A stretch of DNA of 21,394 nucleotides, taken from the IMG/VR virus record IMGVR_UViG_3300010283_000001. One strand, given 5' to 3'. Source of the DNA: an uncultured virus (IMG/VR IMGVR_UViG_3300010283_000001) (lineage: Duplodnaviria > Heunggongvirae > Uroviricota > Caudoviricetes). The translations under genes and the position numbers were made by a program. Below are positions 5,972 to 8,467 of the stretch, in pieces; position 1 is the stretch's first letter, and each line of letters begins with the position of its first letter. A model generated the notes under the pieces. That model made no database searches, was not told the DNA's origin, and saw nothing but the letters and a program-made list of their open reading frames with translations.

Positions 5972-6355
5972 ATGAGCAATATCATCAACCTGGCAGCGAC
6001 TGTAAACGGTAAAGACTTTAACGGCGCTGTAGACCGTGATCCTATGTGGTGCTTATCAGTGTTTAAAGGCGATCTGGTTGAAGTTAGAACAACCGAAGGT
6101 TATAGCGACGATTATAAATGCGAGATTCATTTACACAACTGGTACACGGGTAAAACTTATGCGCTGAATCATGCGTTTATCGGCAAGGTTGAATATAGAG
6201 AAATGATCGACGAGGAAACAGGGCAAGATTTTAGCGATTATGTTTATATTCGTTCAGAAACATTAGCCGAACGTTTGATCGAGAAAATGAAAGCAAAAAA
6301 TAAAATTAATTTAGCTCATTGGATTGATATAACAAACGATTCTGCTTATCAGTAA
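5972..6355 (+). CDS. hypothetical protein, 127 aa
   Basis: ORF track; GAGG SD. Confidence 0.9.
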   Translation: MSNIINLAATVNGKDFNGAVDRDPMWCLSVFKGDLVEVRTTEGYSDDYKCEIHLHNWYTGKTYALNHAFIGKVEYREMIDEETGQDFSDYVYIRSETLAERLIEKMKAKNKINLAHWIDITNDSAYQ

Positions 6356-6370
6356 ATAACATTTCATACC

Positions 6371-6397
6371 AGGGCGCACAAAGCGCCCTTTCTTTTT
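6371..6397 (+). terminator. Rho-independent terminator ending the early block
   Basis: AGGGCGC-ACAAA-GCGCCCT-TTCTTTTT. Confidence 0.9.
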
Positions 6398-6599
6398 ACC
6401 TAAGTAAAGATGATAGCTTTTACCTATCAAAAACGTTCACCGAAAAAAGTGAATAGATCGCGGTATCGAGCTAATCAAGGAGCAGATGAACAACCATACC
6501 ATGAAGATCATAAGGCGCTTACAACGTGTTTTAGACCGCTTATTTTTAATTTCTCAATGTAACTATCTGGCAAAAACAGCCTTTTTCTTGTCTTTCCTC

Positions 6600-6676
6600 T
6601 TAAATGATAATCATTCTTATTTATAGCTGATTATTTATGCAATAAACTGAATAATGCAATAATGATAATCATTCTT
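6600..6676. promoter_or_regulatory. two Fur-box matches
   Basis: TTAAATGATAATCATTCTT 6600-6618 (14/19) and AATAATGATAATCATTCTT 6658-6676 (16/19) versus GATAATGATAATCATTATC. Confidence 0.7.
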
Positions 6677-6970
6677 AACTTATGACCATCTAACCTATAA
6701 AATAATAAGTTATCTAACTAAATTAAAACTAATTATCTCACCTTTATTTATAACTTACTGTTACTATCTCATTGATAACCTTATATTAAACAACAATAAC
6801 CAATATAAATCATTACTAAGCTAAATATAATCTATCTAACCTTTAAAACTATAACTATAATCTATCGAATTGTTGCACAAAGTAACTATTAAATTGTTAG
6901 TAACATTACTAAATAATTAATATCCTATCTATTTATGATCTAATCTTTACCTTCCTATCTATTACCTAAA

Positions 6971-7001
6971 TAATCATTTCATACAGTAATCATTTCATAC
7001 A
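6971..7001 (+). repeat. tandem direct repeat TAATCATTTCATACA x2
   Basis: 6971-6985 and 6987-7001 are identical. Confidence 0.9.
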
Positions 7002-7066
7002 ATAATTATAACAAGAAATATAATTCGCAAGCGTATCATTAGCAGCCTATGCCGGACACATAGGCG

Positions 7067-7212
7067 GCTAATAATAACGCAACTACACACCCCACATAAT
7101 AACCATCACCGATAGTTATTATTTGTGCTTATGTAGCTTGCAACAATTGCAAGCGCAACAATATACATGGTATATTGTATCCCTTACATTGTTGCGGTGC
7201 GTTATTATTAGC
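7067..7212. repeat. 15-bp perfect inverted repeat enclosing several hairpins
   Basis: GCTAATAATAACGCA 7067-7081 / TGCGTTATTATTAGC 7198-7212. Confidence 0.9.
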
Positions 7213-7501
7213 TAATGTTTAGAACATTGGCTATAATATAAGCTGCATATAATAAGCATAGCGAAGAATAATACTGATGATCATAATGCGCCACCCTCCA
7301 GGGGGCGCTATGTGCACACAAAGAAATCTTTCTTGTCAAGAAAAATATTACTACTATTGCGCAAAATTATTTATATCTGAATAGATGATTTTTTATGCTA
7401 TTGGCCCTAATTATACCCCCTTTTGTTGAGCCTACTTTCTTAAAAGCGCAATAAATCAGAATTATCTTGATTTTTAGTCGGTTTTATAGTACAGAAAGTA
7501 T

Positions 7502-7520
7502 GCAAATGATAATCATTATC
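7502..7520. promoter_or_regulatory. Fur-box match
   Basis: GCAAATGATAATCATTATC, 17/19 to consensus. Confidence 0.75.
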
Positions 7521-7597
7521 AGCTATCTTCCACGGTTGGCACTATTTCACGCAGGATCATTTCATTTGGCAAGGTGTATATAGATGTTTAGAAATGC

Positions 7598-7610
7598 CAA
7601 GCCATTGATT
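7598..7610 (-). promoter_or_regulatory. IHF consensus site
   Basis: Minus strand AATCAATGGCTTG = WATCAANNNNTTR. Confidence 0.55.
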
Positions 7611-7690
7611 TACTTAGAATTTATCTGTTTTGTTGTGAGTAATGCCTTTCTTGCTCAGAAAATAATCAAAAGTCTTATAAGTCATTGAAT

Positions 7691-7715
7691 GATAATGCAA
7701 ATGATAATTATTCTC
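7691..7715. promoter_or_regulatory. overlapping Fur-box matches
   Basis: GCAAATGATAATTATTCTC 7697-7715 (15/19) plus GATAATGCAAATGATAATT 7691-7709 (14/19), offset 6 bp. Confidence 0.7.
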
Positions 7716-7803
7716 ATTGATATTTGAGGGGGACGGTCGGCAGAAATCGGGGGGCGCTGAAAATCGCGTTAAGCACCTCTCGCAAGCGAGCAGTATTTTG
7801 CGG

Positions 7804-7816
7804 CAAGTTATTGATA
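7804..7816 (-). promoter_or_regulatory. IHF consensus site
   Basis: Minus strand TATCAATAACTTG. Confidence 0.55.
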
Positions 7817-7935
7817 TTATTGACTTTACGCTTATGAAAAGGGGGTGTGTCGAAATAAATCGGGTATACCGGAAAATTTTTGTGGCATAGATATTTATTT
7901 GTCTATATTATGTACAAAGGGGTGTGTTAAAAATA

Positions 7936-7972
7936 ATAGGTATATATAGAATAATTGATAGGGAAATCCTAT
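7936..7972. promoter_or_regulatory. OxyR-like box
   Basis: ATAG-N7-taga-N7-ATAG-N7-CTAT; three of four tetrads exact. Confidence 0.45.
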
Positions 7973-7990
7973 ACTAATCCCTATACTAAT
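7968..7990 (+). repeat. tandem repeat CCTATACTAAT x2
   Basis: 7968-7978 and 7980-7990. Confidence 0.85.
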
Positions 7991-8023
7991 TCCTCCATTA
8001 ATGATGTTCCTATGTTACTGTTC

Positions 8024-8052
8024 TTGTAATAGATGAAAAGACGCTGTATGAT
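8024..8052 (+). promoter_or_regulatory. sigma70 promoter opening the right-hand gene run
   Basis: TTGTAA-17-TATGAT. Confidence 0.7.
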
Positions 8053-8089
8053 GTGTGGCATGAAACGTAAACTTATAAAGGAGTCTGAT

Positions 8090-8467
8090 ATGTGTGTTCC
8101 TCTTAGCAGTCCACTGCTGTTAGAATTTTATAAAGCATGGATGGAAGATCATTCCTCAATGCATCGTGAGAATGTTGGCTTGTGTATTTGCCTTATGGAT
8201 TATCTGGCAACCACTATGTCAAAGAAAAAACCTACGCAAGAAGATATAGAACATTTCAAGATGGTTCGTAGTAAAACGCTAGAAGAGATGAAATTGCAAT
8301 TCACGTGTGCTGGGCTATCATCATTCCTGCCCTTTAATGATGACCTTCTGTGTTATGAAGATGAAGGTAAGAAACATTCTTGCCATACGAACCCAGAGCG
8401 ATTGCAGTGGGTGAAAGATCGTATTGCCGATTCATGTTTGGTGTTAGGGGGTGATAATGAAAAGTAA
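8090..8467 (+). CDS. hypothetical protein, paralogue family A, 125 aa
   Basis: Start moved to ATG8090 (AAGGAG); GLC...QF..AGL...PFN...CH.N..R..WV motif. Confidence 0.9.
   Translation: MCVPLSSPLLLEFYKAWMEDHSSMHRENVGLCICLMDYLATTMSKKKPTQEDIEHFKMVRSKTLEEMKLQFTCAGLSSFLPFNDDLLCYEDEGKKHSCHTNPERLQWVKDRIADSCLVLGGDNEK

Follow-up and report, generated by a model that had tools for sequence, protein, structure and literature searches.

A folded element beside the terminal repeat of phi92-like phages: a probable, hitherto undescribed signal for replication start or genome-end processing

What is the role of a dense nest of inverted repeats that lies in a gap between the genes of a large lytic phage, and does it act as DNA or as RNA? 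This question is raised by a 21,394-nucleotide (nt) stretch of DNA (the window) from the IMG/VR virus record IMGVR_UViG_3300010283_000001, in which an initial annotation had marked positions 7025-7345 as a candidate large structured RNA or single-stranded DNA (ssDNA) switch. The source was found to be a phi92-like (Justusliebigvirus) myophage of E. coli; the 1.5 kilobases around the nest are 94-96% identical to those of the phages SD2, alia, phi92 and others, and this region matched 71 GenBank records, 48 of which span most of the query. The left part of the nest, 7038-7212, is a real and specific element that is present in single copy throughout the subfamily Stephanstirmvirinae. It probably serves as a hitherto undescribed signal for the initiation of replication or the processing of the genome ends.

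All inverted repeats named in the initial annotation are present, namely the hairpin 7038-7072, the perfect 15-base-pair (bp) pair of arms 7067-7081/7198-7212, TAATAAC/GTTATTA, GCTTGCAA/TTGCAAGC at 7136-7154, ACAATATAC/GTATATTGT nested in CGCAACAAT/ATTGTTGCG, a hairpin at 7210-7232 with 10 pairs including one G.T, GCGCC..GGCGC at 7288-7308 and TTTCTTG/CAAGAAA at 7329-7343, as is a TATAAT at 7019-7024. Folding of 7025-7345 gave z-scores of -6.44 on the plus and -7.25 on the minus strand, and 0 of 100 shuffles folded as well. For the core, 7034-7216, the values were -5.91 (plus) and -8.19 (minus) when folded as RNA, and -7.92 (plus) and -9.06 (minus) when folded as DNA, with 0 of 200 shuffles as good in each case. 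Folding of 7213-7428 was within the shuffled range (z -0.51/-0.73), so that the hairpins at 7288-7308 and 7329-7343, taken as a set, do not exceed chance; the tract to the left, 6790-7025, folds no better than chance (z 0.04/0.68), and the terminal repeat to the right is also ordinary. As a structured unit, 7025-7345 was thus drawn too wide: only its left ~175 nt are conserved outside the genus and fold beyond chance, and for these the proposal stands.

Clear evidence for this fold emerges from the comparison of related phages. In a sensitive blastn search the region was matched in 133 phage records; Justusliebigvirus phages match over the full length, and Phapecoctavirus as well as Klebsiella, Citrobacter and Serratia relatives match at approximately 7004-7212 only. 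Queries taken from Citrobacter phage Tr1 and Klebsiella phage KP2025 each returned 133 records, distributed identically over organism names and hosts. Covariation was analyzed in an alignment of 25 distinct Stephanstirmvirinae sequences, comprising the window, GenBank records, IMG/VR loci and metagenome loci, from which one member of each duplicate pair (L127 = L128, L048 = L132) and the incomplete locus L015 were excluded. RNAalifold predicted 38 pairs from these sequences, 12 with changes on both sides and 0 with a one-sided change. The structure proposed here consists of 44 pairs (the inner stem of H1, P1, H3, H4 and H5; see the list below), and its controls were the same pairs with partners slid by 1-3 columns and 500 shuffles. 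In this structure 94.3% of 1090 cells are paired, as compared to 27.6-46.8% in the slid controls, a value that 0 of the 500 shuffles reached. Double changes were found in 14 pairs (2-4 when slid; 4 of 500 shuffles reached 14) and in 76 cells (4-17 when slid; 0 of 500 shuffles), and the covariation score was 0.202 (at most 0.048 when slid; 0 of 500 shuffles). The number of further standard pair types, 21 versus 5-11 in the slid controls, was equalled by 293 of the 500 shuffles. This pattern shows that intramolecular pairing within 7038-7212 is under selection across the phage subfamily, and for this interval it supports the earlier reading of a large structured RNA or ssDNA.

A covariance model, R1, was built from the same alignment. 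It found one copy each in the whole records of phi92 and ESCO5 and in the nearest virus record (G001), and 0 matches in the whole records of rV5 and PVP-SE1; as the latter two belong to the Vequintavirinae, the element is not extended to rV5-like phages. Ninety-nine metagenome loci contain the palindrome of helix H4, and 9 of these match the full model with 149.8-198.9 bits, whereas one other gives a partial match of 20 bits, so that the H4 palindrome alone is not specific. The overall fold consists of a hairpin, H1, adjoining a four-way junction of P1, P2/H3, H4 and H5. Its parts, and the hairpins to its right, are as follows; apart from the first line no strand is assigned.

7038..7212, minus strand (favoured, not settled): whole conserved folded element, H1 plus four-way junction, supported by covariation; 185.6 bits with R1
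7038..7072: H1 hairpin, inner stem 7045-7051/7059-7065, loop CCGGACA
7038-7043/7067-7072: outer stem of H1, ATTAGC/GCTAAT, which competes with P1
7067..7081: P1 5' arm, GCTAATAATAACGCA, pairs with 7198-7212
7198..7212: P1 3' arm, TGCGTTATTATTAGC, pairs with 7067-7081
7084..7135: P2, enclosing H3; TACAC (7084-7088) with ATGTA (7131-7135)
7099-7107 with 7111-7119: H3, loop ACC
7136..7154: H4, GCTTGCAA-(loop)-TTGCAAGC, invariant in sequence
7155..7196: H5, CGCAACAAT/ATTGTTGCG, with an inner hairpin 7158-7166/7170-7178
7210..7232: hairpin AGCTAATGTT-TAG-AACATTGGCT, in Justusliebigvirus only, lost or replaced in other genera
7288..7308: GC-rich hairpin seen in the sequence, followed by TATGTG
7329..7343: weak hairpin TTTCTTG-T-CAAGAAA, inside the part that does not fold beyond chance

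The helices differ in the kind of support that they receive. All 375 cells of P1 hold Watson-Crick pairs, and double changes occur in 4 of its 15 pairs, among them AU<->UA, AU<->CG, CG<->GC and GC<->CG/AU; compensation over the 116 nt that separate its arms points to intramolecular pairing. The inner stem of H1 is paired in 175 of 175 cells with double changes in 3 of 7 pairs (GC<->CG twice, UA<->CG), and its outer arms are invariant and therefore provide no evidence from covariation. Double changes affect 6 of the 9 pairs of H3, in which 93.6% of the cells are paired on the plus strand and all 14 unpaired cells are C.A or A.C. Both H1 and H3 turn over to at least three unrelated sequences and yet stay paired, with loops of 3-7 nt. 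H4, whose 7 pairs do not differ among the 25 sequences, is supported by invariance and not by covariation. Of the five pairs in P2, four are invariant Watson-Crick pairs, and the remaining one reads C.A on the plus and U.G on the minus strand; adding P2 turns the core into a compact four-way junction whose linkers measure 0-2 nt. In other genera H5 reads CGTAAT(G)/(C)ATTACG, compensatory at two positions, and one T.G pair occurs in ESCO5-like phages. Its inner hairpin is absent from most other genera, and KP2025 keeps one of different sequence.

The initial annotation had also proposed mutually exclusive pairings, and these exist: the ATTAGC copies at 7038 and 7207 are alternative partners of GCTAAT at 7067-7072, and ATTGTTGC at 7188-7195 can pair with either of two copies of GCAACAAT. 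A switch, however, is not supported in the form in which it was proposed. The competing arms never vary, so that covariation cannot choose between the alternative pairings, and a single consensus fold accounts for the data. Over the whole window ATTAGC shows no enrichment (12 matches versus 15 expected, 4 of the 12 inside the element), and motif searches with TGTTGAGC, CAACTACAC and GCCGGACAC revealed no partner sites elsewhere. Additional direct and inverted copies of GGTATTATTAGC, which belongs to the P1 3' arm, were seen downstream of the element in KP13-26 (L130), L129 and Tr1 (L006); in these Klebsiella and Citrobacter phages they are alternative partners for the P1 5' arm.

No known family accounts for the element. 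A search of Rfam 15 gave 0 matches at gathering thresholds within the window, and at E<=5 the sole hit was Hrs21 at 7205-7322, outside the core (E-value 0.54, 17.3 bits versus a gathering score of 102). In outline, the junction of P1, P2/H3, H4 and H5 is similar to a cloverleaf, yet ARAGORN detected 0 tRNA or tmRNA genes in the window; the view that this is neither a tRNA nor a recognised family has thus held. The phi92 record carries no annotation for the element, and none of the literature that was searched, which did not include the phi92 genome paper (PMC3457257), describes it. By its position the element resembles cis-acting origin or packaging elements, but it belongs to no described family.

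This position is at the junction of the genome. The element is located inside a gap free of open reading frames (ORFs), 6563-7716, that is flanked by plus-strand genes; the last gene before the gap, 5972-6355, is the counterpart of phi92 gp248, and downstream of it comes an intrinsic terminator (6371-6389). In the phi92 record, direct terminal repeats of 343 bp are annotated at the two genome ends. This repeat maps to the window once, at 7429-7771, which identifies the window as a circularly collapsed assembly in which 7429 and 7771 correspond to the physical genome ends. In agreement with these ends, a 342-nt contig of run X18 (the whole record) spans exactly 7429-7770, that is, the repeat unit, and a 342-bp repeat was determined by PhageTerm for phage BME3 (PMC12210895). 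That Stephanstirmvirinae genomes end in direct terminal repeats is stated in another article (PMC12695924). The ESCO5 record does not have the repeat at both of its ends, so that the termini in Phapecoctavirus cannot be confirmed from it. From the end of the element at 7212 to the start of the repeat there are 216 nt, and the element thus lies where a T7-type junction signal is to be expected, in the unique DNA left of the repeat. Directly left of the right-hand repeat, the nest occupies the last unique DNA, which is the concatemer junction when the genome replicates. In the 20 of 26 loci in which both markers were found, the spacer between the element and the repeat start measures 207-465 nt; it is 207-280 nt in 17 of these 20, 389 nt in L126 and 465 nt in L130. 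The order of the locus is kept across genera, namely a small conserved block (6405-6500), a G-poor tract, the element, a variable spacer, the repeat start and the repeat end, and the sequence of the spacer is not conserved between genera. The features that surround the fold are listed here, again with a strand only where one is assigned.

6600..7025: G-poor, AT-rich tract, GC content 0.21, GC skew -0.53
6811-6931: ATCTATC-type repeats within this tract
6971-7002: two tandem copies of TAATCATTTCATACA within this tract
7019..7024, plus strand: TATAAT, candidate -10 box; the scan found no acceptable -35
7429..7771: homologue of the phi92 343-bp direct terminal repeat, single map position, 96.8% identity; context, outside the fold

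The G-poor tract shares its composition, and not an alignable sequence, between genera. In the 400 nt left of the element the plus strand holds 5-12% G and 16-24% C at an AT content of ~66-78% (21 of 21 loci, all genera), and in the same 21 of 21 loci C exceeds G and A exceeds T, with a skew of -0.16 to -0.53. A counterpart of the TAATCATTTCATACA tandem is annotated as a repeat_region in phage arall. On the other side, the last part of the spacer in every genus examined is a GC-rich hairpin, after which comes (A/T)TGTTG^AGC at the repeat start. Such units of a GC hairpin and TGTTG^AGC precede the repeat start in ESCO5, phiWec190, KP2025, L010 and KP13-26, and Klebsiella phages carry extra ones, of which KP13-26 (L130) has three; window positions 7288-7318 look like a degenerate copy. 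Judged by sequence, the GC hairpin with (A/T)TGTTG^AGC at the repeat start is a candidate cutting motif of the terminase. GGGGGCGCT, noted with the hairpin at 7288-7308, has a further copy at 7750, close to where the repeat ends on the right. The repeat start (7405-7431) reads ..TTTTGTTG^AGCC and the repeat end (7750-7775) ..GCGTTA^AGCAC; the hairpin and motif at the repeat start were compared in the spacers of L004, L128, L005, L010 and L130. Within the spacer, the motif ATAATAAGC(T) at 7238-7262 varies in copy number among Justusliebigvirus isolates.

Two lines of evidence bear on the strand that folds. The z-score of the minus strand is the lower one in 23 of the 25 sequences (mean -9.84, versus -7.60 for plus), and the cells that are not Watson-Crick pairs comprise 68 that are C.A or A.C on the plus strand, equivalent to G.U on the minus strand, versus 7 that are G.T on the plus strand. 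Taken with the objections given below, the evidence leans towards the minus strand, which is considered about three times as likely as the plus strand, a preference that falls short of being established. Concerning transcription, the initial annotation had suggested that an RNA could start on the plus strand near 7031. The case for this start is weak, with no good -35, no terminator and strand evidence that leans to minus. The TATAAT at 7019-7024 is confined to Justusliebigvirus; other genera have AATCAT, AATGAT or AATAAT, and only A2, T3, A5 and T6 are kept. A promoter scan of 6300-8100 gave 12 matches versus 11.4 expected from shuffles. The evidence from RNA libraries consists of assembled contigs, of low depth and without strand information, from six libraries with shares of 0.06-0.18, four of which were mapped (X15, X17, X18 and X20). 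A 352-nt contig from X15 lies at 7046-7393, and the contigs of X17, X18 and X20 do not cover the core. As the X18 'RNA' contig is the exact repeat unit, which is expected from phage DNA, it warns that these RNA libraries contain phage DNA.

Whereas the fold, conservation, copy number and position of the element are shown by the results above, its strand, the kind of molecule (RNA or ssDNA) and the function are inferred. The preferred interpretation, which is tentative and held at somewhat less than even confidence, is that 7038-7212 is a single-copy cis element of the phi92-like and phAPEC8-like Stephanstirmvirinae that acts as a single strand, most likely the minus strand, to prime replication. 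In one version, a leftward minus-sense transcript would fold and then enter the easily melted G-poor tract, where the RNA would be richer in G than in C against a C-rich template, favouring a persistent RNA-DNA hybrid; this hybrid would prime DNA synthesis, as in the case of ColE1 RNA II or the T4 oriF/oriG transcripts. In another version, the exposed minus DNA strand would itself fold and recruit primase. The composition of the tract on the minus strand (T>A and G>C) is the pattern expected if this strand were often non-template or exposed. Replication priming would address three facts together, namely the selected pairing over 116 nt, the single copy at the junction and the adjoining skewed, meltable tract. 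A downstream region in which the RNA would have more G than C, as an R-loop primer would need, was found in 21 of 21 loci, which is evidence from composition only.

Both versions have precedents. The ColE1 RNA II pre-primer and the R-loop transcripts of T4 oriF(uvsY) and oriG(34) belong to transcript-primed replication origins, and the element would resemble them in having a structured transcript next to an easily melted region, an RNA with more G than C versus its template and a single cis site per replicon. It differs from them in that it has no sequence or Rfam similarity and forms a four-way junction, whereas RNA II forms a series of stem-loops; by this analogy the promoter, transcript, hybrid and origin activity of the element are hypothetical. 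Single-strand signals such as G4 oriC, the phiX174-type primosome sites, plasmid ssoA and F Frpo are strand-specific ssDNA folds of 100-200 nt with several hairpins and conserved unpaired motifs, and they recruit primase or RNA polymerase. The element is a multi-hairpin fold of comparable kind; theirs, in contrast, are located in ssDNA phages and in rolling-circle or conjugative plasmids. To our knowledge, no single-strand initiation element has been described in a large lytic double-stranded DNA (dsDNA) myophage.

A number of observations weigh against minus-strand priming. Fifty of the 68 cells that favour the minus strand are in three pairs that were chosen from the minus-strand fold, and without these three pairs the comparison is reduced to 18 versus 7 cells, or approximately 8 versus 2 independent events. 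The ESCO5-like clade keeps the T.G pair in H5, which would be C.A on the minus strand, and it is the plus strand that has the higher structure conservation index (0.819 versus 0.743). Furthermore, the plus strand is depleted of G in and around the element, so that G-to-A pressure could itself yield C.A cells. A scan and inspection of the minus strand to the right of 7212 detected no sigma-70 promoter that is conserved; TATAAT or TACAAT abuts P1 in some genera, and others have nothing there. The terminator after gp248 was the sole one in a scan of 6300-8100, which revealed none adjoining the element on either strand. The low-depth, strandless RNA-library contigs say nothing for or against transcription. 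The tract is AT-rich and its G residues are not clustered, which makes an R-loop plausible without a specific motif to indicate one, and a literature search found no mapped origin for these phages.

The location of the element would also suit a signal at the level of DNA for packaging or for duplication of the terminal repeat. The terminase or the replication machinery would then recognise or nick its folded strand or extruded junction, or would use it as a fold-back primer. This explanation, the main rival, is judged unlikely. There is one repeat copy per concatemer junction, so that the repeat must be copied before or during cutting; the element is single-copy in the last unique DNA before the right-hand repeat, at the short distance noted above in most loci, and GC hairpin and TGTTG^AGC units are found between it and the repeat start. 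As DNA it folds far beyond chance on both strands, and mismatch types are found on either strand, which would fit a role for both strands or for a cruciform. Chung and Hinkle (1990) are said to have described packaging signals and a 'hairpin' intermediate left of the terminal repeat of T7. T7-type phages must duplicate their repeat, and hairpin DNA containing the repeat has been found in T7 infection (PMC4281155). The junctions of T7 and T3 are similar in position, in the final few hundred bases of unique sequence that precede the right-hand repeat, and in the need of both phage types to duplicate a short repeat. However, the T7 right end (39130-39849) has no G-poor tract, no sequence similarity and no such fold, its best 180-nt window reaching z -3.83, so that the analogy with T7 is positional only. 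T7 also uses its own RNA polymerase; its phiOR is at 39229 in the 39,937-bp record NC_001604, which, with a terminal repeat that we take to be 160 bp, would place it ~550 bp from the repeat. Further points against a packaging signal are the variable spacing of 207-465 nt from the cut site, the energetic demand that extruding a 175-bp multi-arm structure from a duplex would presumably make, and the strand asymmetry in fold z-scores and mismatch types, which is not expected for a cruciform.

A non-coding RNA, stand-alone or leader, with a regulatory or counter-defence role is considered a little less likely again than a packaging signal. It could be a plus-strand RNA from ~7031, possibly a long leader that runs across the repeat into the first genes, or a small RNA from the minus strand. 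Functional RNAs typically show such multi-helix junctions with covariation, here in 14 pairs; every genus retains a -10-like AATNAT at 13-14 nt upstream of H1, the plus-strand linkers are rich in C and A and free of G and would therefore stay unpaired, and the higher structure conservation index of the plus strand and the X15 contig over 7046-7393 are in line with it, as are conserved alternative pairings (ATTAGC three times versus GCTAAT once) that would suit a switch. On the other hand, nothing in Rfam reaches a gathering threshold, neither strand has a -35, an intrinsic terminator or a U-tract, the C.A mismatches in plus-strand stems persist in whole clades, and the RNA contigs are found alongside DNA-like ones. 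Another explanation, which we regard as very improbable, is that of arrays of duplex sites bound by a phage protein, for example an initiator or the small terminase, with copies that would co-vary to fit the protein. It is the blocks of invariant sequence, namely GCTAATAATA, GTAGCTTGCAA..TTGCAAGCG and CAACTACAC, and the covarying G shared by the extra GGTATTATTAGC copies of Klebsiella and Citrobacter phages that speak for such sites. However, a shift of H1 and H3 to at least three unrelated sequences with pairing kept is unlike the operator of a conserved protein, and asymmetry between strands in mismatch types and fold z-scores would be meaningless for duplex sites. A protein-coding role was considered and rejected, as the longest ORF overlapping 6990-7430 has 43 amino acids and the substitutions in the stems are compensatory; some GenBank records annotate 7-8 tiny 'hypothetical proteins' across the gap.

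Several observations were made on the surroundings of the element. After the terminator there is a small ORF at 6410-6562, with 50 amino acids from 6410 or ~25 from the ATG at 6487, which is preceded by AAGGAG. The block 6405-6500 is 74-84% conserved in other genera and 96.9-100% within Justusliebigvirus; the ORF is probably a real small gene, one that several records leave unannotated. Four boxes of the AAATGATAATCATT type are present at 6602-6630, 6658-6688, 7502-7532 and 7699-7727, two of them inside the terminal repeat. Against what we take to be the 19-bp Fur-box consensus, 7502-7520 matches with 2 mismatches and 6658-6676 with 3; 0.02 such matches are expected by chance. The records MG065639, MG065645, MG065656, MG065689, MG065650 and OP562383 are labelled as Campylobacter or Acinetobacter phages, and all six are ~95% identical here to E. 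coli phages of the phi92-like or phAPEC8-like type; the Campylobacter and Acinetobacter host labels of the MG0656xx series and of OP562383 look doubtful.

Phi92-like and phAPEC8-like phages are widely isolated and used in therapy cocktails. The element is the strongest conserved non-coding feature at the genome junction of these phages and a region to be left intact when their genomes are engineered. Its 14 covarying pairs represent ready-made disrupt-and-restore mutations and offer a handle on an origin or packaging signal in a myophage with direct terminal repeats. It is possible, albeit rather doubtful, that the large lytic dsDNA phages of an entire subfamily rely on a strand-specific fold, of a minus-sense primer RNA or of the exposed minus DNA strand, to define the start of replication or of the copying of their genome ends. 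If this were true, the element would stand for a new class, of phage origins or of terminal-repeat elements, unrelated to any RNA or ssDNA motif described so far, and, as a strand-specific ssDNA or primer-RNA element, it would extend such a mechanism from plasmids and small phages to large lytic phages.

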